Assembly: GCA_964416445.1 (NCBI GenBank)
Contig: CAYQEE010000001.1
Location: 67,676-131,675, forward strand
Reading direction: 5' to 3'
Length of the DNA: 64,000 nucleotides
Source of the DNA: an uncultured Gammaproteobacteria bacterium
Lineage (GTDB): Bacteria; Patescibacteriota; Microgenomatia; Levybacterales; UBA12049
Both the position numbers and the translations under genes were made by a program. The notes beneath the pieces were generated by a model. That model saw only the letters and a list, made by a program, of their open reading frames with translations. It did no database searches and was not told where the DNA came from. This document shows, in pieces, positions 34,124 through 55,686 of the stretch. How positions within the stretch are numbered: the stretch's first letter is position 1; every line of letters starts with the position of its first letter.

Positions 34124-35128
34124 ATGAACAAACAAAAATCTCAATATTTTGATGTTTCTATTCTCATTCCTATGCGGAATGCTTCTTCTACTATTATAGA
34201 AACTTTACAAGGAATAGAAAAACAAACATATCTGTATAAAGAAATAATTATTGTTGATAATGCGTCAACAGATAACTCAGCAGAACTTGTCCGTAACTAT
34301 TCTAAAAGTCACAAAAGCATGCATATACATTTAATAGTAAATGAAAAAAATTTATTTATTGCTAGAAGTTTAGTAATAGGCGTAAAAAACGTAAAGTCAG
34401 ACTATATTATTTTTATTCAATCAGATTGCAGGCTTATTGGTAAAGACGAATTTCAAAAACTTTTAAAACCGTTTACCCAAGATACTTCGGTAGTTGCAAC
34501 CTTCGGAAGAGTTCATCAATCTTTAGTGATCTGGAACCATTATGCTTTTTGGGAACAATTTCTTTTTGCTTACCAAGCAGGAAAAACATCGGTTGGTTTA
34601 GTGGGAAAAATTGACTGTATTAAAAAGGAAGCATATATGAAAATAGGAGGTCATGATGAAGTTTTGTGTGATTGGTATGGAGCAGAGGATGGAGATTTAC
34701 ATATGCGATTATTAAAAATTGGTAAAACGGTTGCAACAGAAGCTTCAATAGAACATCTTCATTATACCTATAAAGATTTTTCATTTAACGATTTACTAAA
34801 GAAAAAAAAGATTATTGCAGGAGCCTATGGAATTATGTTAGGAAGGTATGGATTGAGAAATGAACCATTTGGTATATTTACAATGCTGCTTAAGCCGGCA
34901 CTCGTAGTTGGACTTCTTATTCCACAAACGAGGCTCATTTCTCTTATTCTTATTATTCTTTTTATCATTTTATACTACTGGAGAATGTTTACGACACGTA
35001 ACGTTGTGTCGAATCCTAAAATTATTTTGGTTCCATTTGCATTTATTCTTTTACTATTTTTAGAAACATATTGGACTGCTGAAGGATTTTATCATAGTCT
35101 TATCACACTTCATAAAGTTTCATCATAA
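34124..35128 (+). CDS. Glycosyltransferase family 2 with C-terminal transmembrane helices
   Basis: VSILIPMRNASSTI ... IIIVDNASTDNS GT-A motifs plus two C-terminal hydrophobic helices. Confidence 0.65.
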   Translation: MNKQKSQYFDVSILIPMRNASSTIIETLQGIEKQTYLYKEIIIVDNASTDNSAELVRNYSKSHKSMHIHLIVNEKNLFIARSLVIGVKNVKSDYIIFIQSDCRLIGKDEFQKLLKPFTQDTSVVATFGRVHQSLVIWNHYAFWEQFLFAYQAGKTSVGLVGKIDCIKKEAYMKIGGHDEVLCDWYGAEDGDLHMRLLKIGKTVATEASIEHLHYTYKDFSFNDLLKKKKIIAGAYGIMLGRYGLRNEPFGIFTMLLKPALVVGLLIPQTRLISLILIILFIILYYWRMFTTRNVVSNPKIILVPFAFILLLFLETYWTAEGFYHSLITLHKVSS

Positions 35129-35138
35129 ATATATTTAT

Positions 35139-35480
35139 ATGAATAAGTTAAAAAAATCTTATTATGAATTTGCTTTAAAAAATAAGACATATTTTTTCAC
35201 TGTTTTTTTTATGGGAATCGGAATTGATATTCTTTATTATACATTTCTTTCTGATACACTCTTTTTTTTACTTGTTATATATTGGATTTTACTTATTTTT
35301 TTACTTAACTTAACAAGTAGAGATACGTTCATTATAATATTAGGCATTCTGTTTATATTATTCATTTTTTTCATCTTAGATGTGGGAACATTTCATACAG
35401 AACGGGTTACCACATGGATTTACTTCTTACTGATTATTGGAGTTATACAACAAATAAAGGAACTATTCTACAGGAGATAA
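35139..35480 (+). CDS. Small 3-TM membrane protein, partner of the adjacent giant membrane protein (paralog of 46449..46757)
   Basis: 113 aa. C-terminal RVTTWIYFLLIIGVIQQIKELFYRR aligns with RITLWVYFFIVFGVIQQFFELKKKK of the 102-aa ORF. Confidence 0.5.
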   Translation: MNKLKKSYYEFALKNKTYFFTVFFMGIGIDILYYTFLSDTLFFLLVIYWILLIFLLNLTSRDTFIIILGILFILFIFFILDVGTFHTERVTTWIYFLLIIGVIQQIKELFYRR

Positions 35481-35481
35481 T

Positions 35482-38400
35482 ATGTCGACAAAAAAAATAT
35501 TTGTTTTTATTCTCGTATTTGCTTTAATCATTATTCCATTCTTTTGGTTAAAACCAGGAGAAGTAAATTTGGGGGGTGATTCTTCACGTGGATACCTTTA
35601 TGAACCGTTTGTTTTTATAAAGAACTACGTTTTGTATGGAATCAATGCGTGGAATATTGGAACCGAGTTGGCAGGATATTTCATTATTCCTTTTGCTGCT
35701 TTTCTTGGACTTCTTATGATCTTTGTGAAGACACCTCATAATCTTGTTAATGTATTTAATAGTTTTTCTTTTGTTCTTGCTTTTCTGGCAACATATGGAT
35801 CCATATACGCAATTATTATGGACAATGATATGAGTAAAAAGAAGAATATAGGATTTATTAGAACAGTCAGTATTATCGGAGGATTATTTTATCTTTTCTC
35901 TCCAATTATGACCAATTGGGATAAACCTCTCCTTACTTTTAATCAAGTGTTTCTTGATCCATTGATGTTTTTTCTTATCTATAAGTATGTAATGACAAAA
36001 AAACCCTTTTATGCTCTTTTCGCAATTCTTGGAACATTTATCTTTGCTCCAAATTTTAGTTTTATTGGTGCACCAACCTTCTTTTCATTTTATCCCTTTG
36101 TTTTTTTCATTCTTTTTTTTCTCTGTCTTATAAAAAAGACATCTATACCAATTAAACAATTTGTTTTTTTTATTCTTCTGATGTTAGGTATACATGCCTT
36201 TCAGTTATTACCACAGTTTATTTTATTGAAAAGACCAGATTCAGTATTATCATTACGTGTATTTTCTCAGTCAACATTTAACTATGTAGATTATTTTCAG
36301 AGAATAGCTAATGGTGTTAATGTGACTGATAATTTTTTAGGGTTACCGCAGTTTCCATTGTTATTTGGAGTGTCTTTCTTTGTGTTTCCTTTTATTCTTG
36401 TCTTTGCGTTAATACAAAAAGTAGAAGATAAAGATGATATTTACTTTCGAAAAGTATATATACTTATTTTTTTGTGCTATCTTTTCCTGCTCTATTTCAC
36501 TTCAGCAAAGTTTACCAGTTTGGGGTTTTCCCTATATGAGAATTTGTTTAAAATTCCTGGATTCGGAATGTTTCGTAATTTTACCGGGCAGTTTATGACC
36601 GCCTTTTCTTTTTTCTATTCACTCACTATTGCTACTGGATTGTACATTATTTATAAAAATGTAAAAAAGGTATTTTGTATAAGTATTACGATATTTGTTT
36701 TTCTTATCCTTGTCGTTCGAGGGTGGCCAATCGTAAATGGTAGTATATTATATTTACCAATATTACAGTCAAAGATCTCATCGCCTTTTATTATTCCGCC
36801 TTCATTTGAACATGCATTAACTTATATTTCCCAAATACCGACTGACGCAAAAATACTTGCATTACCGTTAACTGACTTTGGCTATCTCATGGTAGCAGGT
36901 GAAAACGGTGGAATGTATATAGGATCATCCCTTATTGGTCCGCTAACATTGAAACAGGATTTCGGTAATTATAGTGCTATGGGTATTTTAGGTGATTCGT
37001 TTATTCAAGCAATAAAAAGTAACGATATTACTACAATAAAAAATATCCTCGGTGTATTAAATATTCAAGATATTTTTTGGGAAACAAACCCGTTTGTTTA
37101 CGGAACTAATTTCCCTAATTTTCCATATCAATCAACTCAATTATATCTTCCAACGACAGTATCTGCCTATCAATCTTTTATTAATTTGCTTCCTATTACT
37201 CAAAGACATTATTTTGGGAAAACGTTACAAGTAATGCATTTGGATGTTGCAACGGTTCTCCCAAAGATATTCCCATCGGTGAACGTTCTCTACACAAATA
37301 ATCTTTCAGATACAGGGTATCTATTACGGAGAATAGCTGGTCAACCAAATATTGTTTTACCGACACAAAATTTTTTAGAAAATATTTCCTCCCAATCTTT
37401 TCAGGCAGATTTACATGACAATTTTTCGGGACTTTATAATAATTTACAATTTCATTCTGCAATGCCGGAAGTTACGTGGAAACCAGGAAGTATAGTATAT
37501 CCTTTTGTTATCTGGAAAGAAGAACGCTCTCTAAAGAAATTACAGTCGCAGCAAAAAATGGACGTTGCTTATTTATATTTAGCAAAACGAATTGAGGAAC
37601 TAGGTAAATGGACTAATGATATTCCTATACTGCATAAAAAAGTTACATGGCAAGGAACGAGTATAAAACAATTAATACATTGGTCGGAATATAATAGCTG
37701 GGAAGCCTCTTTTGCTCATTATGAATCTAACGCAAATAATATTATTATCGGTATTAAGCAATTTCCTCAAGACGAAATTCTTTCTCAAAAGGAGATAGCA
37801 TTTGAGCAATTTGAACAACACAGAATGCGCTTGCAAACTATTATTTCTGGTTCTGGATTTTCAAGTGAAGACAAAAATTATTTACTACATCAAAGTAATA
37901 TGCTTATTGATACATTAGAAAATAATCTTAAATTAGAGAAAATTGATATCACCGAAAAGCATTATTCGGTAAATCTTCCAAAAGGAGCAGAAGGGAATTA
38001 TGTACTTAATATTTCTCGAATTTCACCTGAGGCAAGTATCTCAGGGTTATTTATTGGAGGATCTCAATACAATTTAATTAATCAACAAAATAACTTAGTC
38101 TCTTCAGAGCAAGTTTTAATGTCTTCGGGTAAGGAAATTCCTATAATACTTACAACACAAAATACAAATCTGATAAACGATACGCAGTGGGAAGGTTTAG
38201 GTTCTGTGAAAAAAACAGATGATTCTGACGTTTTAATTTTTGATAAGTTAGTCGAAAGTATTCCAGCTCAGATGGTAAGACAAATTCCGGTTGTTAATAG
38301 TTCACGACAGTATATTATTTCATTTTTATATAATACCCATAATGTTCCTTTTTCTATAAAGATATTTGACAAGAGGATAAAGAATCAGGGAGAAGTTGAA

Positions 38401-39087
38401 TTTCATGAATATACAACACGACAGCTCATATCGAATGATTGGAAGCTATTTCAGACGGTATTTACTATAGATCCTCAAACATCAGAAGCCTATATGGAAA
38501 TTGAAAGTACCGCTCCTGTAGAACCAAAAGAAATTATGATGAAAAATCTATCAGTAAATGTTATTGAAAATCCGATAGTTACCATACAGAAAATACTACC
38601 TCAACCAGTAGTGGGCCCAACAATAACATTTCAACGTATTAATCCGACAAAATATCATATTTTCGTTAATCATGCGGATACTGCTTATGTTTTGACATTT
38701 CTACAAGCATTTAGCCAAGGCTGGAAATTATATTATAAACCTGCCTCTTCTGGTAAAAATTTCTCGATTATACAATCTTATTTCGGTGGGTCTGTTTCAG
38801 AAGGTGGTCATACGAATACTGCATTTGGTAATGATTTGTTTGAAACTTGGTTTTTACATCCTATTGCTGAAGCAACACATACAACAGGGGACGGTTATGC
38901 AAATTCTTGGATCATCAGTCCAACTGATACCGGTGGAAAACGTGATTATGAACTCATTATAGAATTAAATACACAAAAGTATTTCTACATGAGTATACCA
39001 ATATCTGTAATAGCATTTTTGCTTATTCTCATTTGGTTACTGAGTGATCTTTTTAAAAACAAAATAAAAGTATATGGATCAAAATAA
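35482..39087 (+). CDS. Giant polytopic membrane protein (1201 aa): polytopic N-terminal domain (about 12 TM), about 700-aa extracytoplasmic domain, C-terminal TM anchor. Putative GT-C-type glycosyltransferase/polymerase
   Basis: N-terminal IIPFFWLKPGEVNLGGDSSRGYLYEP motif shared with 44009..46447 and (GGDWPYY) 39774..41789. C-terminal anchor SIPISVIAFLLILIWLL. No soluble-enzyme motifs. Confidence 0.55.
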   Translation: MSTKKIFVFILVFALIIIPFFWLKPGEVNLGGDSSRGYLYEPFVFIKNYVLYGINAWNIGTELAGYFIIPFAAFLGLLMIFVKTPHNLVNVFNSFSFVLAFLATYGSIYAIIMDNDMSKKKNIGFIRTVSIIGGLFYLFSPIMTNWDKPLLTFNQVFLDPLMFFLIYKYVMTKKPFYALFAILGTFIFAPNFSFIGAPTFFSFYPFVFFILFFLCLIKKTSIPIKQFVFFILLMLGIHAFQLLPQFILLKRPDSVLSLRVFSQSTFNYVDYFQRIANGVNVTDNFLGLPQFPLLFGVSFFVFPFILVFALIQKVEDKDDIYFRKVYILIFLCYLFLLYFTSAKFTSLGFSLYENLFKIPGFGMFRNFTGQFMTAFSFFYSLTIATGLYIIYKNVKKVFCISITIFVFLILVVRGWPIVNGSILYLPILQSKISSPFIIPPSFEHALTYISQIPTDAKILALPLTDFGYLMVAGENGGMYIGSSLIGPLTLKQDFGNYSAMGILGDSFIQAIKSNDITTIKNILGVLNIQDIFWETNPFVYGTNFPNFPYQSTQLYLPTTVSAYQSFINLLPITQRHYFGKTLQVMHLDVATVLPKIFPSVNVLYTNNLSDTGYLLRRIAGQPNIVLPTQNFLENISSQSFQADLHDNFSGLYNNLQFHSAMPEVTWKPGSIVYPFVIWKEERSLKKLQSQQKMDVAYLYLAKRIEELGKWTNDIPILHKKVTWQGTSIKQLIHWSEYNSWEASFAHYESNANNIIIGIKQFPQDEILSQKEIAFEQFEQHRMRLQTIISGSGFSSEDKNYLLHQSNMLIDTLENNLKLEKIDITEKHYSVNLPKGAEGNYVLNISRISPEASISGLFIGGSQYNLINQQNNLVSSEQVLMSSGKEIPIILTTQNTNLINDTQWEGLGSVKKTDDSDVLIFDKLVESIPAQMVRQIPVVNSSRQYIISFLYNTHNVPFSIKIFDKRIKNQGEVEFHEYTTRQLISNDWKLFQTVFTIDPQTSEAYMEIESTAPVEPKEIMMKNLSVNVIENPIVTIQKILPQPVVGPTITFQRINPTKYHIFVNHADTAYVLTFLQAFSQGWKLYYKPASSGKNFSIIQSYFGGSVSEGGHTNTAFGNDLFETWFLHPIAEATHTTGDGYANSWIISPTDTGGKRDYELIIELNTQKYFYMSIPISVIAFLLILIWLLSDLFKNKIKVYGSK

Positions 39088-39793
39088 AAATCTAAAGTCT
39101 CATTTTCTAAATAATATTGCATTATTTTATTTTGTGTTTTCTTTAAAAGAATTAAGTCGGGCTTTATGGTCTGATTTTCTTGCTACTCTTTTTTTAAACT
39201 CCGGTAGTGGATTTTTGACCAGTCTTGTAAAAGGGTTTATTGGACACTTTTTGATTAGAAGCATCTATCCGCTTTTTATTGGTAAACGCACAAAACTAGT
39301 GAATATTCATAATATAACCCTAGGGAAAAATGTCCGTATTGCAGATGATGTAACAATTATAGCGTACGGAAAAATCCATATTGGTGATAATGTTATTATT
39401 GGAGAGAAAACAACGATGATTGCTAACGACGAACTTGTTTTAGGAAATAATGTTGTTGTAACAAGAAATTGTTATATTGCCCAATTAGGAGGTCCTATTA
39501 TTATTGATGATTACGTACTTATTGGAGATTTTAGCCGTATACATAGTATTAATCATTCATACAGGGATGACGATATCCCACTACATAAACAACATCATAT
39601 ACGAAATAACATACATATACAGGAGAACGTATGGATTGGATCAGGTGTTATGGTGATTAATAACATAACTATTGGGAAAAGATCAGTGATTGGTGCAAAT
39701 GCAGTTGTTAATAAAAATATTCCACCGTTTGTTGTTGCGGCAGGAGTTCCGGCAAAAGTTATAAAATATATACATGAAAAAAATACTAAATAA
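39074..39793 (+). CDS. Hexapeptide-repeat (left-handed beta-helix) O-acetyltransferase with N-terminal hydrophobic segment
   Basis: Repeated [LIV]G-x-x-x-x hexads: [52 protein letters not shown]-terminus. Confidence 0.7.
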   Translation: MDQNKNLKSHFLNNIALFYFVFSLKELSRALWSDFLATLFLNSGSGFLTSLVKGFIGHFLIRSIYPLFIGKRTKLVNIHNITLGKNVRIADDVTIIAYGKIHIGDNVIIGEKTTMIANDELVLGNNVVVTRNCYIAQLGGPIIIDDYVLIGDFSRIHSINHSYRDDDIPLHKQHHIRNNIHIQENVWIGSGVMVINNITIGKRSVIGANAVVNKNIPPFVVAAGVPAKVIKYIHEKNTK

Positions 39794-41789
39794 ATCTATT
39801 CCTTTTCTTTTTTCTAGCATGTTGTTTCTTGCTATTGTAAAAATATTCTTTCACTGGATTTCACTACCCGAAATTAACGGAGGAGACTGGCCATACTATG
39901 CAAAGGGAATGTTTGAAAAATTTACGCCATTAGCACCGTTATGGACTGCTCAAGGCGGAATTGGGTTAGGTGGTGTTAATGCTGATTTTCCTATATATAG
40001 TTACTTATATTTTACCATTGGGGTTTTTGTCAATATACTTCATTTTACTTGGATTTACGTTTATAAAGTATTTTGGTTTTGGTTACCATTAGTATTTGGG
40101 GCAACAGGAATATCTTATTTATATAGAAGTTGCCAAAAAAAATCTACTTTTTGGGAAACTTCTCTTGCAGTTTTTCTCTACATAGCAAATACATACTTTC
40201 TTATGCTTGCATCTGGTGGTCAGATGGGTATTCTATTAAGTTATAGCGTTGCTCCCTTTGTTGTTGGTACGGTGATTAATTCGCTACGATCTTTTTCTGA
40301 AACAGTATCAATAGTTACTCTCATGAGGAGAGGTTTTTTATTTGGGCTTGTGGTATCGCTAGAAATGCTATTTGATCCTCGAATTACTTATTTAATGATA
40401 GGATTAGTTTTACTTTATATGCTTTTTTCTTTTTTTATAATCCGATCCATTCATATTGCTCATTATATCGGTTATGTAATCATAGGTTTTGCAACTCTTT
40501 TATTGATTCATAGCTACTGGCTATTACCGTTCTATTTTTTTAAATTGCTCGCTATACCGATGGGGATAACAAGTAGTTCAGGTTTTACTTTTTTTAGTTT
40601 TGCGGATTTTTCACATGCCTTATCTTTCTTACATCCAAACTGGCCAGAAAATATTTTTGGAAAAGTTCATTTTTTACAGCCTGAATTTCTTTTGTTTCCA
40701 TTACTTGCTTTTTTGGGACTGCTTGTTGTTAGAAAAATGCAGAAAGAAATAGGATTTGTTTATTTATTTTTTTGTTTCATAGCTCTAATTGGTGTATTTT
40801 TAGCAAAAGGGGTAAACCAACCTTTTGGAGAACTAAATTCATGGCTTTTTAATCATGTTATTGGTTTTAGCTTATTTAGAGATCCGACAAAGTATTATCT
40901 ATTCATTGCGATATCATATGCTGTAATGATTCCTTTATCTTTGAAAACGATGGTAGATTTTGGGATAAAAAGAGACTTTTTCCAATATATTTTCTTTGTT
41001 CTATTGTTAAGTATTATGCTATTTCAGATAAGACAAGCATTACAAGGTAGGTTAAACGGAACCTTTACACAGGTTTCGGTACCGCAGGATTATATTCGAT
41101 TTGGAAATTTCCTTTCTTCCCAACCAAATTTTTTTAGAGTTTTATGGATTCCTCAACAATCTCGTTTCCGATTTGAAGGTGAAAACCATCCCGTGCTTAA
41201 CGTAAATGATATTTTTAATACAACTGATCCCGTAAAAATTGCAAATAAATTACAAAGCGCTTCGGGTAGAAAGCTGGTACAAGATCTGAGTGTGAAGTAT
41301 ATTATCATTCCTTATGATAGTACCGGCGAGATTTTTCTGAATGACAGAAAATATGATAATATAAAACGACAAAATTTTATAAAGAAATTAGATAGTATAT
41401 CGTGGTTACAGAAATTTTCTATAGGTAAGATTATTGTCTACGAAGTTCCACGCTATAATGGTCATTTTGTCTTACCAAACCAAACAAACGTCCCATATAC
41501 GAGGAATTCAAGTTCTGATTATGTAGTGACTATTAACAATATATCCCCTCAATCACTGGTTTTCTCAGAAGCATATCATCCGGGGTGGATTGGAATTGTT
41601 AAAAATAGAGAAATTAGAAGTGTTCAAAATCCTGAGGGATTAAATACATTTAGATTACCTGCAGGAACCTATAAATTTCATATCATTTTTATACCGGAAA
41701 AGTATGAGAAATATTTCTACGCAATTTCATTTATTAGCTTTGTGGGAATAATGATTTTTTTACTAGGGTCTTATAAAAAGAAATTATAA
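39774..41789 (+). CDS. Large polytopic membrane protein (671 aa), third member of the GGD-motif family
   Basis: About 13 N-terminal TM helices. INGGDWPYY after TM1. C-terminal extracytoplasmic domain ending in TM anchor YAISFISFVGIMIFLLGSY. C-terminal Y/GW pattern shared with the other two. Confidence 0.5.
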   Translation: MKKILNKSIPFLFSSMLFLAIVKIFFHWISLPEINGGDWPYYAKGMFEKFTPLAPLWTAQGGIGLGGVNADFPIYSYLYFTIGVFVNILHFTWIYVYKVFWFWLPLVFGATGISYLYRSCQKKSTFWETSLAVFLYIANTYFLMLASGGQMGILLSYSVAPFVVGTVINSLRSFSETVSIVTLMRRGFLFGLVVSLEMLFDPRITYLMIGLVLLYMLFSFFIIRSIHIAHYIGYVIIGFATLLLIHSYWLLPFYFFKLLAIPMGITSSSGFTFFSFADFSHALSFLHPNWPENIFGKVHFLQPEFLLFPLLAFLGLLVVRKMQKEIGFVYLFFCFIALIGVFLAKGVNQPFGELNSWLFNHVIGFSLFRDPTKYYLFIAISYAVMIPLSLKTMVDFGIKRDFFQYIFFVLLLSIMLFQIRQALQGRLNGTFTQVSVPQDYIRFGNFLSSQPNFFRVLWIPQQSRFRFEGENHPVLNVNDIFNTTDPVKIANKLQSASGRKLVQDLSVKYIIIPYDSTGEIFLNDRKYDNIKRQNFIKKLDSISWLQKFSIGKIIVYEVPRYNGHFVLPNQTNVPYTRNSSSDYVVTINNISPQSLVFSEAYHPGWIGIVKNREIRSVQNPEGLNTFRLPAGTYKFHIIFIPEKYEKYFYAISFISFVGIMIFLLGSYKKKL

Positions 41790-43031
41790 TAATCCCATTT
41801 TTTTGAGTGCGTTTGCGTACGTATTTTCCCAGGTATTTTCTTTTGCGAAATTTATCGCCGCTTTACGATATTTTCTGTAGAGGTTTTCATCTTGCAATAG
41901 CTTAATTATTGCATTTGCATATGGTTCAGGCTGATCATTAGTTCTTATTGCACAGCCTTTTTTCTCTGCATCAATCCCTAGAGGAGGAACATGAGTTGTT
42001 ATGACTGGTTGTCCATTGGCAAAATAAAGGCGCATTTTTGTTGCGTCTGCATACCAACGTATAGAACCCGGTATAGCTCGGTAGGGAGCGAGACCAATCT
42101 GGTATTCTTGAGACATTTTTGATAGAAGATTTAAGTTACTGATAAAGCCATGCATATGAACTACTCTCTCCAATTTAAGTTTTTTTATTAACTTTTTTAC
42201 TTTTTCTTCTTCACTGACAAGTCCTGCTCCAAATATGTCAAGTGTTACATCTGGTATTGATTTTCTAACAATTGCTAATGCTTCTACAGCTAAATCAAGT
42301 CCATTTTGCGGTCCAATGGTGCCAGCAAAAAGAAGAGAATTTTTTTTCAATTTATTGATTGGTAGATAAGAAATCTGGAAAGGGAAAAGAGCATTGGGAA
42401 CTTGAATGACCGGTTTTACTTTTTGTGGATTCAGTCCTACGCTAATTCTTGCAGGAAGCATTGCAGGTGAAACATCCCAAATATAATCAGCGTGTGTTGC
42501 ACAAAATCTATCGAGCCAAAGGTAAATAGCATTAAATAGTTTTGACTGGTATCTTGTAGAAGAATAATCGGAAACATAATAAATAACTGTTTTAATTTTT
42601 CCAAGTTTTTTAAAGAATATTCCAGTAATGGTATGGATTGATTCCAGGCCAATAAACAAGTCAATTTTATTTTTTTGTAGCCAAAGAACTTGCGCGACCG
42701 TGAAGATATCGCGGAGCTTAAAAGTTGGTTGTGTTTCTAAGGTATTATGTTTTTCTAATAGTTTTTTTGATGGAAATAGATATTTTGGCTCTTCTCTTTT
42801 TACTAGTTTCCCTTTTTCATAATATTCAATTTTTGGGATAACATCGTCACTACTACCAGGATGCGTACAATCGACTAGAATAATATTTCTTGTTGTCGGT
42901 CCAAAAAATTCAAGCATTGGTTCTATCATGCCATTATTTGGAAGACGCTTTCCATTTTGCCATGCTGAAAATGAGGCAATAAAAACTGATTGAAAGTGAG
43001 GATTAATTATCTGTTTTCTGCTTTTGCCCAT
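41784..43031 (-). CDS. Glycosyltransferase family 4
   Basis: GT-B. C-terminal domain with LFAGTIGPQNGLDLAVEAL ... GQPVITTHVPPLG. Confidence 0.65.
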   Translation of the reverse strand: MGKSRKQIINPHFQSVFIASFSAWQNGKRLPNNGMIEPMLEFFGPTTRNIILVDCTHPGSSDDVIPKIEYYEKGKLVKREEPKYLFPSKKLLEKHNTLETQPTFKLRDIFTVAQVLWLQKNKIDLFIGLESIHTITGIFFKKLGKIKTVIYYVSDYSSTRYQSKLFNAIYLWLDRFCATHADYIWDVSPAMLPARISVGLNPQKVKPVIQVPNALFPFQISYLPINKLKKNSLLFAGTIGPQNGLDLAVEALAIVRKSIPDVTLDIFGAGLVSEEEKVKKLIKKLKLERVVHMHGFISNLNLLSKMSQEYQIGLAPYRAIPGSIRWYADATKMRLYFANGQPVITTHVPPLGIDAEKKGCAIRTNDQPEPYANAIIKLLQDENLYRKYRKAAINFAKENTWENTYANALKKMGLL

Positions 43032-43969
43032 GCAATGGTTTTCTCCAGTCCCATTTGAAGATTGTTATGTGGTTTCCAATTGATCGCATTTTCTAATTTA
43101 GAAATATCTGCCCTCATATGTTTCTGATCTCCTGGTCTAGCAGGAAAATAACTGATTGGATATATTTTCTGGTCTTTTTGTAAAGTATCCATAATAGTAG
43201 ATATGAGATCATGAATTGATTTATCTATACCAAAGCCAAGATTAAATACTTGATCGTATGTTTTTTCATTGTCAATACTATTGACCCAAGCGTCCACAAC
43301 ATCATCAATATAAACAAAATCTCTTGATTGTTGCCCATCACCAAATATTTTAATTGGTTCATTTCGGATGACATTTCCGATAAAGATTCCCATAACTCCT
43401 TGGTATGGATTAGTAAGACTTTGACGTGGACCATAAACATTAAACATTCGGAAAGATGTGACATTGAGTTTGCCAGGTAAGTCATTCCTCAATCCCGTAG
43501 CATGAACGAAACGTTCAGCGGCATATTTTGTTATACCGTAATACGAAATTGGAGCAGCATTATGGGTTTCCTGAACCGGTAGATTTTCTACTGGTCCATA
43601 GACAGTCATTGAACTTGCATAGAGAAGACGAGTAATTTTTGCTTCAACGCATTTCTTCACGATATTAATAGAGCCAATAAAGTTTGCTCGGACATCTGCT
43701 AACGGATCAGTAAAAGAGTTAATAGTTGATGCACATCCAGCAATATGGAACACCACATCGGGGATCTTTTCAAATGCTTTTTCAACATCATCTGAATTTG
43801 CTGTATCTCCTTGAATAAATCTTGCAGAACTTGGAATATTAGTTTTTAAGCCAGTCGAAAGATTGTCAAGTACCGTAACATCATATCCATCGGTAAGAAG
43901 TCTTTCTACCATGTGACTTCCAATAAATCCTGCTCCACCAGTAACTAGAACATGTTTTTTGCTTGCCAT
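43007..43969 (-). CDS. NAD-dependent epimerase/dehydratase (UDP-sugar 4-epimerase-like)
   Basis: [33 protein letters not shown]. Start placed at Met 43969 (MASKKHV) rather than 43990 to avoid a 39-nt divergent overlap. Confidence 0.65.
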   Translation of the reverse strand: MASKKHVLVTGGAGFIGSHMVERLLTDGYDVTVLDNLSTGLKTNIPSSARFIQGDTANSDDVEKAFEKIPDVVFHIAGCASTINSFTDPLADVRANFIGSINIVKKCVEAKITRLLYASSMTVYGPVENLPVQETHNAAPISYYGITKYAAERFVHATGLRNDLPGKLNVTSFRMFNVYGPRQSLTNPYQGVMGIFIGNVIRNEPIKIFGDGQQSRDFVYIDDVVDAWVNSIDNEKTYDQVFNLGFGIDKSIHDLISTIMDTLQKDQKIYPISYFPARPGDQKHMRADISKLENAINWKPHNNLQMGLEKTIAWAKAENR

Positions 43970-44008
43970 GTATGCTACTATTATACACATAAAATATTCT
44001 TTGTGAAG

Positions 44009-46447
44009 ATGCTAAAAAGGATAAATTTCTTTGTTAATTCCCGCTGGTTTATTGTTTTTATATGTTTACTTCTCGCAATAATTCCTTTTTTTTGGTTTAA
44101 ACCCGGGTATATCGATATTGGTGGTGATTCAAGTAGATTATATTTTTATGATCCTATTAATTTCTTAAATAGTTTTGTTCTTAATATTTTTTTACCAGAT
44201 AGTTTAGGAATAAAAAGTGGAAGTTTACATATGCTTCCCTTTATTTCTTTTCTCTCTTTGTTATTTAGTGTAGTTCGTTTCCCTTGGATTCTCAATAATG
44301 TATTTTATAGTATTAGTTTGGTAACCCCTTTTCTTGTTGTTTATGCAATTGTTAAAGAGTTCATTCAAGATTTGTGTGAGGAAAACACTCGACAATACCA
44401 AAATATCAGATATGCCTCTATTGTAGCAGGATTGTTTTATATTTTTATACCAATGTCTTCTGTGGGAGGGTGGGATTTGCCGTTAATCATTCAATCACAA
44501 CGCTTCGTATACCCCTTACTTTTCTGGCTTTTATTGAAATATCTAACAACGTCACGACAAGTTTTTCTCATAATCGCATTGCTTACGAGTTTTTTATTCG
44601 CTCATGATTTTAGTTGGGTGTCAGTTCCTAATGTTCTTGGATTTTTCTCTATCTCTCTTGTGTATTTATTGATATATATAAAATGTATAAAAAAGAAAAA
44701 AATACTAATAAAACCAATAATTTTAGCTTTTTTACTTTTTATTGTTCTCCATGCATTTCATTTACTTCCACTTTTTTTCACAATTTTTGAAAAAAATAGT
44801 GATGTGGGCAATCAACTGTTACAGGGAAGTAGATATTCGGATACTATTCAATATCTAGATAATGTTGCGAGTTATACATCTCATGGATATCAATTTATTG
44901 GTGTAACTCCATTTTCACCTTTTTCTTTCGTTAATATTTCTTTGGTAGTTTTTCCTTTATTGATTATCTTTATGCTCTATAAAAACAAAAATATATTTGT
45001 ACTTATTCCAACAATATTTTTTCTTGTTGTTTATTTTGCAGTTACCGCAAAAATTTCACAATTAGGTTTTTCTTTCTATAAGCTATTTTTTTTATTTCCT
45101 CCGCTAGTAATGTTTCGAGACTTTTATGGAAGATTGTTTGAAATATTTCTATTGTTTTATACTTTGCTAATAGGTTATGCTATGTTTATATTTTTTTCTT
45201 TAACAAAAAGTTATTTGAAGTTTGCAAGCATAATTGCTCTTGCATTTATACTGATTATAAATGCATTGCCATTTCTTTCTGGAAGTATATCAAACAGAAT
45301 TTTGACTCAAGACACCGGAGTAGTTGTAAAGAGTCGTTTGCAGATTGATCCAAATATTGAAAAAATATTGCGATATTTTAGAATGAATCCATCTTCTGCA
45401 AGAAATATCACATTACCTATAGCAGATTTTGATTACCAATTAATAGCAGGTAAAGGGAATGATGGTGTATATTTTGGTCCTTCAATGATTTCTTATCTCT
45501 CCGGAAAAGCTGATCTTGCTTCAAATTTTACGTTAAGACCATTTACTCAAGCACTTTTTAATAGCGTAAAAAATAAAGATTATCTTACTTTTGAAAATAT
45601 CTTTCCAATTTTAAATGTAGGAACAGTACTTCATAATGCAAATCCATATATTTACGAAGTTTTCAGGACATTTCCCTACAATGATGCAAAATTATACATG
45701 CCTCTAACACAAGCAGGGTATTCAGATCTTATTAATAACTTATCATTAAAAAAAATAAATGACTTTGGGAAATTTTATCACTTCTATACCGTTCCTTCTG
45801 CTTTACGCTTACCGATCATTTATCCTGCCAAAAAAGTAATATTTTTAAAACAGTCAACAAAGAGTAATTACGATGAGCGTCAATTTGCTAGTGCTGAATA
45901 CGTATTGAAAAACTTTAGACAAGATAAAAATGATAATGAGCTTCGAAAAGTCTTTTTGAATAATGACATAATGATTTCATCTCTATCCCAGCCGAATATT
46001 TCATTTTCAAAAATTAACAATTCAAAATATATTATAACTGTCGAACATGCATCAGGTCCATATGTATTGGTTTTTTCGCAATCATTTAATACAAATTGGC
46101 AATTATATACGGCAAATCAACAAACGGGAAAAAAAGAGAAAAATATAAAAATTATCCAATCATATTTTAATAACACTATTGTAGAAAGAAAAAATGAAAA
46201 TAAGATAATAGATATGAATATTCTTGAAACAATAGGAAAAACTCCAATCGCAAATACACGACATTATATGGCAAATGTTTTCGCAAATGCTTGGTATATT
46301 GTTCCTACCGATGTTTCTCATAAAACTAACTATACATTAGTTTTAGAGATGACTGATGATAGAATAATGTATGGTGGTATTCTGCTTTCTCTGATTGCAT
46401 TACTAATACTTCTTATTTGGTTAGTAAGAGAGATAAGACATAAATAA
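44009..46447 (+). CDS. Giant polytopic membrane protein (about 812 aa), paralog of 35482..39087
   Basis: IIPFFWFKPGYIDIGGDSSRLYFYDP N-terminal motif and many TM helices. Shorter extracytoplasmic domain. C-terminal anchor GGILLSLIALLILLIWLV. Start chosen at MLKRINFF (44009). The ORF track's longer start is 43952. Confidence 0.55.
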   Translation: MLKRINFFVNSRWFIVFICLLLAIIPFFWFKPGYIDIGGDSSRLYFYDPINFLNSFVLNIFLPDSLGIKSGSLHMLPFISFLSLLFSVVRFPWILNNVFYSISLVTPFLVVYAIVKEFIQDLCEENTRQYQNIRYASIVAGLFYIFIPMSSVGGWDLPLIIQSQRFVYPLLFWLLLKYLTTSRQVFLIIALLTSFLFAHDFSWVSVPNVLGFFSISLVYLLIYIKCIKKKKILIKPIILAFLLFIVLHAFHLLPLFFTIFEKNSDVGNQLLQGSRYSDTIQYLDNVASYTSHGYQFIGVTPFSPFSFVNISLVVFPLLIIFMLYKNKNIFVLIPTIFFLVVYFAVTAKISQLGFSFYKLFFLFPPLVMFRDFYGRLFEIFLLFYTLLIGYAMFIFFSLTKSYLKFASIIALAFILIINALPFLSGSISNRILTQDTGVVVKSRLQIDPNIEKILRYFRMNPSSARNITLPIADFDYQLIAGKGNDGVYFGPSMISYLSGKADLASNFTLRPFTQALFNSVKNKDYLTFENIFPILNVGTVLHNANPYIYEVFRTFPYNDAKLYMPLTQAGYSDLINNLSLKKINDFGKFYHFYTVPSALRLPIIYPAKKVIFLKQSTKSNYDERQFASAEYVLKNFRQDKNDNELRKVFLNNDIMISSLSQPNISFSKINNSKYIITVEHASGPYVLVFSQSFNTNWQLYTANQQTGKKEKNIKIIQSYFNNTIVERKNENKIIDMNILETIGKTPIANTRHYMANVFANAWYIVPTDVSHKTNYTLVLEMTDDRIMYGGILLSLIALLILLIWLVREIRHK

Positions 46448-46448
46448 T

Positions 46449-46757
46449 ATGAGATTATTAAAATATATATTGATATTACTATTTTTCTTCACTCTCTTTT
46501 TTGATCTTCAACATTATGCTAATGATAATGATGTTACGCTGCTGATTATATTGTTACTTGGATTTTTTCTAACTTATATCTATCAATTGGAAAGTAGGGT
46601 AACATTTATTTTTTCAGGATTCCTACTTTTCGTTTTTTGTTGGCAAGTTGTAAATAAAAGTGACCCTATTTTATTAGGAAGAATTACGCTTTGGGTGTAC
46701 TTTTTTATTGTATTTGGAGTTATACAGCAATTTTTTGAATTAAAAAAGAAAAAATGA
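46449..46757 (+). CDS. Small 3-TM membrane protein, paralog of 35139..35480
   Basis: 102 aa. Conserved C-terminal W.YF....GVIQQ..EL motif. Confidence 0.5.
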   Translation: MRLLKYILILLFFFTLFFDLQHYANDNDVTLLIILLLGFFLTYIYQLESRVTFIFSGFLLFVFCWQVVNKSDPILLGRITLWVYFFIVFGVIQQFFELKKKK

Positions 46758-46759
46758 TT

Positions 46760-47833
46760 TTATGCTGCGTATTTTTTTATTTCAGGAGTAATTCCAATCA
46801 ATTTCAAAAAATAATAGTAAAGTATCATAGAAGCAGTATAAAAAGTGAGTAGCCAATGGATCAAATATATAGTTTTTCTTCTTGTTATACTTAAATGGAT
46901 AGAATCTATTATGGGAAGGATAAGAGAAAAGGAATAGGGAATAAACCAGTTTTTTTTTGATCTAGTTGCAGAATACTTTTCCCTTCCTGAGTAGCCTCCT
47001 TTACCCATGGACGTTAAAAAGATATTAAATTTTACTCGAGAAGCAATTTTTTTTAAATATTTTCTCAGTGATTCCGACGAATAATGTATGGTATTATCAT
47101 TTTTTGTAACAGCGAGTAATTTGTTTTGCTTAGTCAGCAAATAAAAAAGATGAGGTAATATATCGGGTGATTGTTTTATTTGCTTGGTATATTTTTTTAG
47201 ATAAGTTAAATCAACCATACATCCTCCAGCCCATAATTCAATAAGAGGTAAATGCTTAATTTTTGAAAAATCAAATATAATACTATTATTATCTTCTTTG
47301 ACTATGATAATATTATATTTTTTTGACATTTCTTTTATCATTTGGTCACTATACTTGCTCTCTCTATAAATAAAATAGGAAAAAGGATCTCCAAATTCAT
47401 TGACATAGTGATTTATTTCAGAATAGAAGGCAGGTGTTTTGTAACCAGATGTCATTACCATTTTTACTCTACTCGAACTTTGAAATGCTTTATACTTAAT
47501 AAAGAAACTCCTCGTATTCTCCAATACCTCATCACTATCAAGAAACATGAGATATTTACCTTTAGCGGTAAGAAATCCTAATTGTTTTGCATAAGTTAAT
47601 TCAATTTTTGAGCTATACAAAAATTTGCATGAATATCTTTTAGCTATTTTTTTCGTGTTATCAGTTGATCCAGCATCTATGACCAATACCTCTATTTTCT
47701 TCGAGGGATAGGTTTGGTTTTTAATAGACTCGAGGGTTTTTGGCAATGTTTTTTCCGAGTTCAAAGTTGCTATAACTACACTAATCAACGGATAATTCAT
47801 AAAATATAAGCTATTACCAATTTCCTTTTCCAA
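46760..47833 (-). CDS. Glycosyltransferase family 2 with C-terminal TM helix
   Basis: ISVVIATLNSEKTLPKTLESI ... VLVIDAGSTDNT ... FLDSDE. Confidence 0.75.
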   Translation of the reverse strand: MEKEIGNSLYFMNYPLISVVIATLNSEKTLPKTLESIKNQTYPSKKIEVLVIDAGSTDNTKKIAKRYSCKFLYSSKIELTYAKQLGFLTAKGKYLMFLDSDEVLENTRSFFIKYKAFQSSSRVKMVMTSGYKTPAFYSEINHYVNEFGDPFSYFIYRESKYSDQMIKEMSKKYNIIIVKEDNNSIIFDFSKIKHLPLIELWAGGCMVDLTYLKKYTKQIKQSPDILPHLFYLLTKQNKLLAVTKNDNTIHYSSESLRKYLKKIASRVKFNIFLTSMGKGGYSGREKYSATRSKKNWFIPYSFSLILPIIDSIHLSITRRKTIYLIHWLLTFYTASMILYYYFLKLIGITPEIKKYAA

Positions 47834-52958: not shown

Positions 52959-53101
52959 ATTTGTTTTATTAAAATGTGATCATGAGCAGGAAATTCTTAT
53001 ATTGTCCACTACACATATTTGAGTCTAATTTCTTATTTCTTTCAAACTATAGGAAAGTATACAATTTTGAAATACTAAGTAAAAATGGTAGAATACTGCT
53101 T

Positions 53102-54049
53102 ATGATAAGTGCTGTTATTCCTCTTCATAATGAGGAGGAAAATTTGGATATTTTATATCAACGCCTTGTCCCTGCGCTAAAGAAAATAGATAAATCGTAT
53201 GAAATAATTTTTATTGATGATGGATCAATAGATTCTTCTTTAGAGATTCTTAAAAAATTGGCGTTGAAAGATCAATTGGTTCGAATTTACTCTTTCAGAA
53301 AAAATCTGGGGAAATCCGAAGCCTTAACTTTGGGTTTCCAGCAAGCAAAAGGAGACTATATTGTCACTCTTGATGCGGATTTACAGGACAGACCTGAGGA
53401 AATAGAGAAACTTAGTGTAAAAATGGAAGAAGGGTATGATTTAGTTACAGGGTGGAGGAAAAATCGACAAGACGCTCGATTCATGGTACGTGCTTCAAAG
53501 TTATTCAATGGGATGACAAAATGGCTCTGGAAAATAGATATTCATGATTATAACTGCGGTTTGAAATTATATAAAAAAGAACTTGCGAAGTCATTGCATT
53601 TATATGGTGGATTACATCGGTTTATTCCATTGTTGGCATATCAACAAGGGTTTTCAGTATCAGAAGTCCTTATACATCATGATAAAAGACTTCATGGAAA
53701 ATCAAAGTACGGTCCCTCAAAAGTTCTCAAAGATTTACCAGATTTGTTTACTATGATGTTTCTGAGCCTTTTCAGTCAGCGTCCTCTTCACTTCTTCTTT
53801 TTTATTGGAAATTTTTTATCTCTTATCGGAATAATATTTTTAGGATACTTAACGTATCTTCATTATTTTTTACACGAAACCGTTGGTACTCGTCCATTGT
53901 GGTCTGTTGGTATATTGTTTACGTTAGTTGGATTACAAATTACTTTTACAGGACTTTTAGCAGATCTTATTATTCATACGATGAAAGGAACTTTATCTCA
54001 TTCTGATGGAGTACAACAATTCATAAAATTTTCGACAGATAAGAAATGA
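53102..54049 (+). CDS. Polyprenol-phosphate glycosyltransferase (GT2, GtrB/ArnC/DPM1-like) with two C-terminal TM helices
   Basis: MISAVIPLHNEEENL ... IIFIDDGSIDSS ... TLDADLQDRPEEI plus C-terminal helices. Start set at Met 53102. The 42-codon upstream extension in the ORF track (52976) has no GT homology. Confidence 0.7.
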   Translation: MISAVIPLHNEEENLDILYQRLVPALKKIDKSYEIIFIDDGSIDSSLEILKKLALKDQLVRIYSFRKNLGKSEALTLGFQQAKGDYIVTLDADLQDRPEEIEKLSVKMEEGYDLVTGWRKNRQDARFMVRASKLFNGMTKWLWKIDIHDYNCGLKLYKKELAKSLHLYGGLHRFIPLLAYQQGFSVSEVLIHHDKRLHGKSKYGPSKVLKDLPDLFTMMFLSLFSQRPLHFFFFIGNFLSLIGIIFLGYLTYLHYFLHETVGTRPLWSVGILFTLVGLQITFTGLLADLIIHTMKGTLSHSDGVQQFIKFSTDKK

Positions 54050-54279
54050 AACCGCAAGATATTATTTTTTTTCTCTTATTTTTACTGTTTGTCTATAAAA
54101 GGAATTCACGATGGACAACAATTGCAGGAATAGTGTGCTTGCTTATTGCAATGCCTCTTTTTGCAAAATGGATATTTTTTACTGCTGAGCGACTAACTTG
54201 GTACGCAGGAGCATTATTTTGCTTGTCACTGTTCCAACAGCTTTATGAAATCAAAAAAGAGATTAAAAAAACTTCATGA
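54046..54279 (+). CDS. Small membrane protein (77 aa, 2-3 TM), possible GtrA-like accessory/flippase subunit
   Basis: Overlaps the GtrB-like gene stop (ATGA). Hydrophobic. No conserved GtrA motif seen, so function is inferred from position only. Confidence 0.3.
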   Translation: MKPQDIIFFLLFLLFVYKRNSRWTTIAGIVCLLIAMPLFAKWIFFTAERLTWYAGALFCLSLFQQLYEIKKEIKKTS

Positions 54280-55151
54280 CCCAAAAACAAAAAGCTTTAT
54301 TGGTTGTAGCAATTACTGCAATTGTTGGAGGAGGGACCACAGCAGTTACTAAAAAAGGACTAGCAGAAATTCCGCCGTTAAATTATGCATTTCTGCGATT
54401 CTTTTTATCGGCGATCATGATCTTCCCTTTTTTCTTAATATATGAAAAGCATATCTTCCGTGACTTAGGAAAAATATTGGGAATTTCACTCTTTGGTGCA
54501 TTAAATATTTTCTTTTTTATTCTTGGCATATCCAAAACAACTGCTACTATCAGCCAGTTGATTTATGGGGCAATCCCAGTTTTTACAGGTATTATTATGT
54601 ATATTTTTTTAAAAGAAAAACTCACAAGAATGAGAACGGTTGGTATTGTCTTAGGATTTATTGGAGTGATAATTGTACTTTTTTTACCAATTTATTTAAA
54701 AAATGTGCCGTTTGCTGGTAACGTGATAGGTAATATATCTATCCTTACTGCTGTTATTTCTTGGACGCTTTGGCTCATATTATCTAAAAATCTTTTGGTG
54801 ATAAAATCTCCTTTTCTTATAACAAGTTACATGGTCTTTGTCACTGCTATAGTATTGTTTCCTTTTTCGTTCCTAGAAGTACATGGTAATTATACATGGC
54901 TTTTTCGTATTGATCGAATAGAGATTCTATCACTTATGTATGTTTCAGTTATTTCCACTATTGCAACCTTTATCGGGACTCAATATGCTATAAAATATGG
55001 TGGAACAATGCTTGCCTCTACGTTATATTACTTACTTCCGATATCAGCATTTGTTTACGCATTTTTTTTACTTGGAGAAAAACTTAATTATGGAATAGGA
55101 GTAGGAAGTATACTTGTGTTAATAGGTACTTTCTTAGTAACCTTACAGTAA
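54276..55151 (+). CDS. EamA/DMT-family transporter (10 TM)
   Basis: 291 aa. Two repeated 5-TM halves. Typical EamA size and topology. Confidence 0.6.
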   Translation: MTQKQKALLVVAITAIVGGGTTAVTKKGLAEIPPLNYAFLRFFLSAIMIFPFFLIYEKHIFRDLGKILGISLFGALNIFFFILGISKTTATISQLIYGAIPVFTGIIMYIFLKEKLTRMRTVGIVLGFIGVIIVLFLPIYLKNVPFAGNVIGNISILTAVISWTLWLILSKNLLVIKSPFLITSYMVFVTAIVLFPFSFLEVHGNYTWLFRIDRIEILSLMYVSVISTIATFIGTQYAIKYGGTMLASTLYYLLPISAFVYAFFLLGEKLNYGIGVGSILVLIGTFLVTLQ

Positions 55152-55152
55152 T

Positions 55153-55686
55153 ATGAAAATTGGAATTGATATATCTCAGATTAGTTATAAAGGAACAGGA
55201 GTGAGTAATTATCTCCAGCTATTAATTCAAAATCTTTTAACTCAAGATAAAGAAAATGAATATATATTTTTTTATTCGTCTTTACGAAAGAAATTTAGTA
55301 TGTCTGAAGTTTTTGATCAGAAATTTTCGAATGTTCAAGTAAAACAGTTTCGATTTCCACCAGGATTATTAGATTTTCTATGGAATAGGATACATATTTT
55401 CCCGATAGAATGGTTCATAGGAGATATTGATATTTTTATTTCTTCTGATTGGACACAACCTCCAACAAAGAAAGCAAAAAAAATGACAATTCTCTATGAC
55501 CTTATTGTTTACAAATATCCTGCGGAAACGGCAGATCTTATCGTTCGCGTGCAAAAACGACGATTGCGTTGGGTTGCTAAAGAAGCTGATAAAATCATTT
55601 GTATCTCCGAAGCAACAAAAGCCGATGCAATAAATATACTACATATCGATAAAAATCGATTGCAGGTAATTTACCCAGGAATTTGA
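55153..55686 (+). CDS. Stand-alone GT4 N-terminal (Glyco_trans_4) domain: truncated glycosyltransferase or split GT-B half
   Basis: 177 aa. Homologous to the N-domain of the next gene (MKIGIDISQIS.. versus [10 protein letters not shown]..). Ends at VIYPGI exactly where the downstream GT4 continues TYPGIKAK into its catalytic C-domain. Confidence 0.45.
   Translation: MKIGIDISQISYKGTGVSNYLQLLIQNLLTQDKENEYIFFYSSLRKKFSMSEVFDQKFSNVQVKQFRFPPGLLDFLWNRIHIFPIEWFIGDIDIFISSDWTQPPTKKAKKMTILYDLIVYKYPAETADLIVRVQKRRLRWVAKEADKIICISEATKADAINILHIDKNRLQVIYPGI

Follow-up and report, generated by a model that had tools for sequence, protein, structure and literature searches.

What kind of enzymes are the three very large membrane proteins that are encoded close together in the DNA analysed here, and what do the small membrane proteins beside two of them do? 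The window is a stretch of 64,000 nucleotides (nt) from contig CAYQEE010000001.1 of assembly GCA_964416445.1, and all coordinates are positions within it. The large proteins are called L1, L2 and L3, and the partners of L1 and L3 are called small A and small B. An initial annotation had proposed these five open reading frames (ORFs), three large and two small, and all five were confirmed together with their coordinates. L3 has an identical copy on a public contig, and an independent gene call there gives products of 812 and 102 amino acids (aa), the sizes of L3 and small B. Our favoured answer, which we consider probable without being secure, is that L1, L2 and L3 are three diverged membrane glycosyltransferases (GTs) of the GT-C fold, similar to AftD, arabinofuranosyltransferase D of the mycobacterial cell wall, and to YfhO, which would act in the four-step mechanism described below. 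The cassette that they form is conserved in the ultra-small Patescibacteria, and its most likely role is to build or decorate a surface glycan. What is observed is homology, fold, conserved motifs, topology and a conserved coupling of the genes.

The three large proteins are not equally related. L1 and L3 share 31% identity over their first ~650 residues (BLASTP, E 6e-78) and 34% identity over a C-terminal block comprising the last ~160 residues (E 1e-24), and L1 carries an insertion of ~370 residues between these two common blocks. Judged by these alignments, L1 and L3 are true paralogues. For L2 the sole BLASTP match to either of them is a C-terminal stretch of 46 residues (E 2e-4), which rules it out as a close paralogue. 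L1/L3-type proteins are referred to as family F1 and L2-type proteins as family F2, represented by alignments of 36 (A1) and 32 (A2) sequences. When these two alignments are compared as profiles with hhalign, they match from one end to the other (probability 99.8%, E 5.4e-28, 623 columns), and the GGD motif after the first transmembrane (TM) helix and a PGF.MFR[ND] loop come into register. Because the profiles align with both motifs in register, all three proteins can be given one architecture, in which L2 is, on profile evidence, an old branch rather than a recent paralogue. The proposal of a three-member paralogous family thus stands for L1 and L3 and for the shared architecture, but L2 belongs to it only as a remote homologue at the level of profiles.

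Structure models were made of L1 (without Met1) and L3, and L2 was placed by sequence and profile only. AftD is the best structural match for both models, with 594 and 670 residues aligned at ~11–12% identity. In L1 a GT-C TM module (~1-423) is followed by a soluble alpha/beta domain (~439-650), a helical bundle (672-815), beta-sandwiches resembling carbohydrate-binding modules (CBMs; 824-1036), the C-terminal beta-sandwich that is shared (1046-1161) and a TM anchor (1162-1199). In L3, according to hydropathy, 11 hydrophobic segments come before the soluble domain (424-782) and one terminal helix, the TM anchor (783-811), after it. Where the initial annotation had counted about 12 N-terminal TM helices, about 11 hydrophobic segments are found instead. 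The resemblance to AftD-type GT-C enzymes that it had noticed is seen again in the layout of 11 segments, soluble part and one helix. The N-terminal polytopic module also superposes on solved GT-C enzymes, and its number of helices agrees with the 11–13 TM helices expected of this superfamily. In its published layout AftD has a GT-C module of 11 TM helices, soluble domains, a re-entry into the membrane via TM12 and a four-helix bundle (TM13-16), with both termini in the cytoplasm; the bundle is essential and binds acyl carrier protein. L1 has CBM-like modules in the soluble domain as AftD has CBMs, but the three window proteins do not have 16 TM helices in one chain. Their chains stop after the re-entry helix, and among 239 F1 proteins with a match up to the profile end, not one has a TM segment beyond the anchor.

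A conserved motif directly after TM1 is present in all three proteins: GGDSSRGYLYEP with D33 in L1, GGDSSRLYFYDP with D40 in L3, and GGDWPYYAKG with D38 in L2, which is the order in which the initial annotation had listed them. The Asp of the GGD motif, an acidic residue in the first extracytoplasmic loop (EL1) as in other GT-C enzymes, is invariant in the 36 F1 and 32 F2 sequences and aligned between the families. In AftD, K39 and D41 of the equivalent region are essential (bioRxiv 10.1101/2019.12.22.885152). An Arg after TM1 and an Arg in EL5 are invariant across the 36 F1 sequences. The EL5 motif reads PGFGMFRN in L1 (36556-36579) and PPLVMFRD in L3 (45098-45121), and L2 has GFSLFRD in an outer loop, the FRD loop being common to F1 and F2. 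At the other end, each large protein finishes with one strongly hydrophobic helix followed by Lys or Arg, and before this helix lies a Trp-containing beta-sandwich motif (FSQGW in L1, YHPGW in L2, FNTNW and ANAW in L3), in agreement with the C-terminal anchor and the aromatic/GW pattern described earlier.

Such conservation bears on the idea that at least one of the three large proteins is a non-catalytic scaffold of GT-C fold, or a transport accessory that organises envelope assembly. Comparable cases exist: MmpA of the Corynebacteriales, a protein of poorly understood function, is homologous to AftD over the first 11 TM helices, and AftD is reported to have a non-enzymatic partner role as well, acting also via a complex with TmaT (both bioRxiv 10.64898/2026.07.31.741767). 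L2 does match the NCBIfam model of MmpA with E 1.9e-9, but at 36.7 bits the match is far from the cut-off of 210. In F1 as in F2 the Asp of EL1 and the Arg of EL5 do not vary, as would be expected of active enzymes, and we regard a scaffold role as improbable.

Curated family models describe these proteins poorly. L1 and L3 have no Pfam or NCBIfam match, L2 has no Pfam match, and the 36 F1 members scanned singly gave Pfam noise only. The AftD model PF11847 (GT-C_AftD, DUF3367) does not match L1, L2, L3 or any of the 36 F1 members at E ≤ 1; it is matched by 3 of the 32 F2 members, at best with E 0.0017. YfhO (PF09586) likewise finds no match in L1, L2 or L3, and it touches 7 of the 32 F2 members. 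When six F2 homologues were rescanned, they scored 23.6–32.8 bits and a single one exceeded the cut-off of 28.5, in all cases through profile positions 732-835 of 835, so that no whole-protein match to YfhO was obtained. The part of F2 that matches is the final beta-sandwich with the C-terminal anchor, and therefore the aromatic/GW pattern before the last helix belongs to the part that is common with YfhO. Searches of PDB sequences with L1 and L2 singly and with the F1 and F2 profiles returned nothing relevant, and the profiles do not reach AftD. A tblastn search of plasmids with L2 gave no match. Confident YfhO or AftD matches together with small ORFs of the GtrA type would make this an ordinary known system; they were looked for and not found. 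The initial annotation's remark that no signature of a characterised family is present is correct for L1, L3 and both small proteins, and for L2 apart from the match far below threshold. The novelty consists of a GT-C family that is like AftD in fold and lies outside every curated model, of a conserved three-enzyme cassette, and of a small partner that belongs to no known family. The description as an undescribed family holds at the family level, but the kind of mechanism, in which a GT-C enzyme cooperates with a GT-A enzyme and a small membrane protein, is known in outline (PMC8035078).

The family is large. In a set of 1.84 billion proteins clustered at 50% identity, the F1 profile matches 6,556 representatives with E ≤ 1e-3, and 1,586 with the stricter limit of E ≤ 1e-30. 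None of the 113 listed F1 homologues has a Pfam domain, and the few with a name at source are called 'hypothetical protein'. Weak TMEM260-like matches in 2 of 36 F1 members (E 0.0011) raise the question of whether the large proteins are instead protein glycosyltransferases, similar to PMT, TMEM260 or oligosaccharyltransferases, that modify S-layer proteins, pilins or other surface proteins. The sugars of the locus would suit this, as Fuc3NAc/Qui3NAc-type sugars and heptoses are inferred from the FdtA, DegT, SIS and GHMP genes, and such sugars are typical of S-layer glycoprotein glycans. However, the best match of both models is the glycan-elongating AftD, with far more residues aligned, L1 carries CBM-like modules, and the window encodes a separate PMT_2 enzyme (61376-62827). 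Protein glycosylation by the large proteins is rather unlikely on this balance, and glycosyltransferases that act on a surface glycan are preferred.

Small A and small B are homologues (BLASTP E 5e-7), and they belong to a family with more than 55 stand-alone members, which were found with jackhmmer among the ORFs of 71 loci fetched from other genomes. They were first described as having three TM helices, but four hydrophobic segments are found. Both termini are rich in Lys and Arg, which suggests that the N- and C-termini lie in the cytoplasm. The conserved features are an Asp in segment 1, an SD loop, S..TF, a Glu-Lys/Arg before segment 4 and the C-terminal motif TE[KR].A.W...F..G.IQ..E; the Trp/Phe/G.IQ motif originally noticed in the window pair therefore extends across the family. 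Neither small A nor small B has a Pfam or NCBIfam match, and the 33 family members that were scanned show no consistent Pfam family and no match to DUF2304, the GacJ family. A search of the PDB with the small-family profile gave nothing relevant.

In form the small proteins resemble the GtrA type, with a length in the range of 100–140 aa, the number of TM segments (three to four in that type) and GT-A and GT-C neighbours, and in form only. GtrA (PF04138) matches none of the 33 members at E ≤ 1, the GtrA-type protein YfdG of E. coli compared with the small-family profile by hhalign gives a probability of 0.1%, and identity as GtrA was rejected since similarity is lacking by hidden Markov model (HMM) as well as by profile. 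It could nevertheless be that the small proteins are flippases, analogues rather than homologues of GtrA/GtcA or ArnE/ArnF, which as homo- or heterodimers would bring polyprenyl-phosphate sugars across to the outer leaflet and so feed the adjacent GT-C enzyme. Their size and four segments fit, GtrA-type proteins having 3–4 TM helices and being thought to act as dimers (PMC8035078), and so do the conserved charges in or by the membrane (the segment 1 Asp, the SD loop and the Glu-Lys/Arg before segment 4). Further points in favour are the adjacent pairs of small genes, the ORFs with tandem small domains (L058, L065), and that a jackhmmer search seeded with YfdG finds a GtrA homologue in none of the 72 loci. 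On the other hand, a GtrA-type flippase such as CflA or GtcA normally serves several GT-C enzymes (PMC8035078), whereas in these loci the small paralogues each go with one particular large gene, and the window already has an EamA transporter right after a GtrB-type gene as well as a Wzx-like flippase. Fusions of small proteins with methyltransferases, described next, also suit an anchor or a subunit better than a flippase. A dedicated subunit is favoured over this unlikely, though not negligible, flippase because small paralogues track individual large genes, because the window has other flippase candidates, and because fusions to cytoplasmic enzymes of one kind are seen for both partners.

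These fusions join an S-adenosylmethionine (SAM) methyltransferase to the C-terminus of the small domain in three loci (L015 2910-4028, L036 12078-13085 and L038 12039-13091) and to the end of two large proteins from other organisms, behind the C-terminal anchor (P0262 and P0350). As both small and large proteins are fused to methyltransferases, the two have a cytoplasmic partner in common. In mycobacteria the aftD locus has a functionally linked methyltransferase, MtrP (bioRxiv 10.64898/2026.07.31.741767). Stand-alone methyltransferases lie inside the cassette in many loci; between L1 and L2, where many other genomes have a SAM methyltransferase, the window has an acetyltransferase. The possibility that the small proteins are C-terminal TM domains of GT2 enzymes was rejected, since the longer ORFs are methyltransferase fusions or tandem duplications and not GT2 fusions. 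Natural fusions of large and small proteins were looked for without a convincing case: L041 has an N-terminal match of only E 6e-5, and no F1 protein has TM segments past the anchor. Tandem pairs of small-family domains share a single ORF in L058 (12701-13384, 227 aa) and L065 (12537-13235, 232 aa), of which one comes from a Bathyarchaeia assembly, and these ORFs suggest that the small protein works as a dimer.

The initial annotation had asked whether homologues occur as large/small pairs in other genomes, and this is the case. The scan took one genome per species and covers 71 loci (labelled L and a number), or 72 sources including the window. A small-family gene is present in 57 of the 72 and an F2 gene in 37. 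A small gene on the same strand lies within 150 nt of 60 of the 89 complete F1 genes, mostly overlapping or at most 31 nt away, where overlaps in the fetched loci are upper bounds because ORF starts were taken from the longest ORF. The inverted order of the two pairs in the window is real, but it is a rule of the family and no peculiarity of the window, as the small gene is downstream in 34 of 57 short F1 forms and upstream in 20 of 32 long forms. The cassette is broken in six sources, by an inverted GT4-epimerase pair that splits it into two halves in the window and in its nearest relative (L001), and by other inserted genes in L017, L018, L020 and L022; every time the small gene stays with its large gene. 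Where two small genes are adjacent, they fall into separate clades that follow the neighbouring large gene (in a neighbour-joining tree without support values). This strict adjacency, which survives rearrangement in other genomes, supports the dedicated small subunit that had been proposed. Membrane GT2 genes overlap the start of the F1 gene in L033 and L043, and in L010 a GtrB-type gene follows ~65 nt after an F1-small pair.

Taxonomy was read from informative record titles only, and by these the loci belong mostly to Levy-, Gottesman-, Woese- and Shapirobacteria, other Patescibacteria and Saccharibacteria. F1-type genes are also found beyond the Patescibacteria, in Methanococcoides (L047), Methanolobus (L069), a Bathyarchaeia assembly (L058) and the PVC group (L046). 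In L047 a GT2, an F1 gene, an ORF weakly similar to the small family (E ~1e-4 to 1e-10) and an F2 gene follow on one strand. The outliers in archaea and the PVC group point to an old origin, or to a transfer between bacteria of the candidate phyla radiation (CPR) and archaea. Many 'MAG TPA_asm' records with the cassette (L005, L009, L011, L014 and others) are titled 'uncultured Gammaproteobacteria bacterium' and have a gene content like that of Patescibacteria; the title is probably a placeholder or a wrong taxonomy.

Several observations weigh against the favoured explanation. For no GT-C family does a protein of the window exceed the curated HMM threshold. The adjacent small gene is absent in 29 of the 89 F1 genes, and the full order F1-small(s)-F1-F2 is found in only 26 of 72 loci. 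In many cassettes there is one small gene for two F1 genes, which a shared factor would explain equally well as a dedicated subunit. The GGD Asp is a candidate for the catalytic residue by its position and invariance alone.

How such a cassette could work is suggested by a known scheme, in which the polyprenyl-phosphate sugar produced by a membrane GT-A enzyme is handled by a small protein or flippase and then transferred, on the outside, by a GT-C enzyme (PMC8035078; PMC11127046). For the window we infer catalysis, a lipid-linked donor, a glycan acceptor and a physical association of small and large proteins along the same lines. Cytoplasmic enzymes of the locus would provide nucleotide sugars, which membrane GT2 enzymes would load onto polyprenyl phosphate, the enzyme at 52976 being a firm candidate for this and the GT2s at 34124 and 46760 possible ones. 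The lipid-linked sugar would then be flipped to the outer leaflet, and the GT-C enzymes would transfer it, at the outward side of the membrane, to a growing or finished glycan. In the large proteins the GGD Asp in the first outer loop may be a catalytic or metal-binding residue, the PGF.MFR loop (EL5) may form the donor site, and the soluble beta-sandwich domains, CBM-like in L1, may hold the glycan acceptor. The four-helix small protein would be a dedicated membrane subunit of the adjacent L1/L3-type enzyme rather than a general flippase.

A more specific idea is that the small protein is the split-gene counterpart of the AftD bundle TM13-16. It is based on arithmetic, as AftD has 11 + 1 + 4 TM helices, whereas here the large protein has 11 + 1 and the adjoining gene encodes four, with matching topology. 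The search of the PDB with the small-family profile gave it no support in sequence, and we treat it as a doubtful analogy. If it is true, these would be obligate two-chain AftD-like enzymes in which the regulatory or cofactor-binding bundle is an exchangeable subunit, and F1-small-F1-F2 would be an ancient AftD-type machine for a core envelope polymer of Patescibacteria and some methanogens.

Comparison with other systems shows what is shared and what is not. AftD (PDB 6W98/6WBX; PF11847) has the same GT-C module, large outer soluble domain, single-TM re-entry and cytoplasmic termini, CBM-type beta-sandwiches as in L1, and an acidic residue just after TM1 that is essential. Unlike AftD, the window chains show low identity to it and, in L1 and L3, no PF11847 match; they have no TM13-16 bundle, with a separate four-helix protein encoded next door, L2 and L3 have no extra CBMs, and the family occurs in Patescibacteria and some archaea, not in Actinobacteria. 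The YfhO/CsbB/GtcA system of teichoic-acid glycosylation in Firmicutes also combines a GT-C enzyme that has a C-terminal TM anchor with a membrane GT-A and a small membrane protein, and F2 shares its C-terminal beta-sandwich and anchor with YfhO. It differs in that the window proteins have no PF09586 match and the one L2 homologue of six above the cut-off matches the last ~100 positions only, that the small partner is not similar to GtrA or GtcA, and that three GT-C genes form one conserved cassette. In the streptococcal pair GacI/GacJ, a GT-A and its small 3-TM activator, the gene for the small membrane protein adjoins a membrane GT2; similarly, the three small-type ORFs of the window all abut a GT2 gene (34124, 46760 and 52976). 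Here, the differences are the lack of a GacJ-family match and that in other loci mostly GT-C genes, not GT2 genes, flank the small gene. The three-component pentofuranose systems of the GT136 type (PMC11127046), compared by description only, likewise rest on a recently founded GT-C family and have a C-terminal CBM, a lipid-linked donor synthase, a dedicated flippase and an action after polymerisation, but they use a MATE flippase and a phosphoribose-based donor.

The features of the cassette and of the genes that may supply its donor are collected in Table 1.

Table 1. Genes of the cassette and candidate donor genes in the window
Feature	Position	Strand	Evidence or remark
GT2 (GT-A fold) membrane-anchored glycosyltransferase	34124..35128	+	Pfam Glycos_transf_2 1.7e-25
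Small A, 113 aa, four hydrophobic segments, L1 partner	35139..35480	+	Stop codon 1 nt before L1 start
L1, long F1 form, 1201 aa	35482..39087	+	Candidate catalytic Asp33 at 35578-35580
LbH (hexapeptide-repeat) O-acetyltransferase	39074..39793	+	Pfam Hexapep 1.8e-16
L2, F2 form, 671 aa	39774..41789	+	Candidate catalytic Asp38 at 39885-39887
GT4 (GT-B fold) cytoplasmic glycosyltransferase	41784..43031	-	Pfam Glycos_transf_1 1e-15
NAD-dependent nucleotide-sugar epimerase/dehydratase	43007..43990	-	Pfam Epimerase 2.1e-58
L3, short F1 form, 812 aa	44009..46447	+	Candidate catalytic Asp40 at 44126-44128
Small B, 102 aa, four hydrophobic segments, L3 partner	46449..46757	+	Start 1 nt after L3 stop
GT2 glycosyltransferase, convergent with small B	46760..47833	-	Pfam Glycos_transf_2 3.6e-20; generic GT2 matches in PDB
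ArnC/GtrB-type polyprenyl-phosphate glycosyltransferase	52976..54049	+	PDB phmmer ArnC 9hwj 3.3e-44, GtrB 5ekp 3.5e-32
sm3, 77 aa, three hydrophobic segments, motif FFTAERLTWYA	54046..54279	+	jackhmmer 5e-11 to 3e-13
EamA/DMT-superfamily transporter	54276..55151	+	Pfam EamA 2.1e-38; directly after GtrB-type gene and sm3

The plus-strand genes from the first GT2 to L2 are tightly packed, with spacers of 10, 1, -14 and -20 nt. This GT2, whose stop lies 10 nt before small A, has three C-terminal hydrophobic segments (residues 250-316) and weak PDB matches that include the membrane GT2 6yv7 and ArnC, and it is a candidate polyprenyl-phosphate sugar synthase. The acetyltransferase gene shares 14 nt with L1 and 20 nt with L2; its NCBIfam matches, to WcaF/WbbJ-type and other hexapeptide acetyltransferases, are weak and below cut-off. 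The G+C content is low, ~0.28–0.40 across the window (in 2-kb windows) and 0.28–0.35 in the cassette stretch.

As the initial annotation had stated, the large proteins are embedded among genes for nucleotide sugars and GTs. A single large glycan locus takes up the window between ~12.7 and 62.8 kb, with a heptose-type pathway (SIS isomerase, GHMP kinase and a nucleotidyltransferase-HAD fusion), FdtA, DegT and GNAT genes, five epimerases/dehydratases of the short-chain dehydrogenase/reductase (SDR) type, UDP-GlcNAc 2-epimerases, GT4s, GT2s and the Wzx-like flippase. Its best candidate for making the lipid-linked sugar donor is the ArnC/GtrB-type enzyme, which is similar to both PDB matches over nearly the full length (residues 43-332 align with 9-295 of ArnC 9hwj) and has C-terminal hydrophobic segments at 273-333. 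The EamA protein is an alternative candidate for the flippase of a lipid-linked sugar. Between the two lies sm3, which overlaps the GtrB-type gene, and the three form a tightly packed trio (52976-55151, plus strand). As a firm member of the small family sm3 was rejected, its match to the core HMM being only 2.7e-5, a level reached by the window copy only; it is possibly a truncated relative. A GT2 paired with an sm3-like ORF of ~75 aa is found in L001 too, and in L010 and L015 sm3-like ORFs are near a GT2 without adjoining it.

Other parts of the window are listed for completeness. At 58293-62827 (plus strand) a polytopic protein of 1028 aa lies before the PMT_2 GT-C enzyme; its one recognisable region is weakly EpsG-like, and it may be a polymerase of the Wzy type. 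The same block of hexapeptide transferase, GT2, large protein and PMT_2 recurs in L010 (18111-22400). UDP-galactopyranose mutase (GLF; 24060-25170, minus strand) is split into overlapping ORFs for the N-terminal (24445-25170) and C-terminal (24060-24488) parts, by a frameshift, as a pseudogene or through a sequencing error. An ORF of 177 aa (55153-55686, plus strand) has the N-terminal GT4 domain only and directly precedes a complete GT4 (55708-56844); it is possibly a gene fragment. Outside the glycan locus, luciferase-like monooxygenases (2385-3368, 3457-4326 and 9243-10229) and a CofD-type 2-phospho-L-lactate transferase (7522-8454) on the minus strand between 2385 and 10229 suggest F420-related chemistry. 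This group is followed by a PAS histidine kinase (10309-12135), and an ORF of 785 aa (4531-6888, plus strand) has no Pfam match at E ≤ 0.001.

To our knowledge, little of the cell envelope of Patescibacteria (CPR) has been characterised, and few of these organisms have been cultured. If the cassette is just another three-component system of side-chain glycosylation, the gain would be the annotation of a large orphan family. If the small protein is an equivalent, acting in trans, of the four-helix bundle of AftD, it would bear on an essential and unexplained part of an enzyme that is a tuberculosis drug target. Placing F1 in the AftD/YfhO branch of GT-C enzymes, and defining a cassette in which two F1 enzymes and one F2 enzyme are accompanied by one or two small partners and by a methyl- or acetyltransferase slot, gives a testable handle on how Patescibacteria build or decorate their surface glycans.

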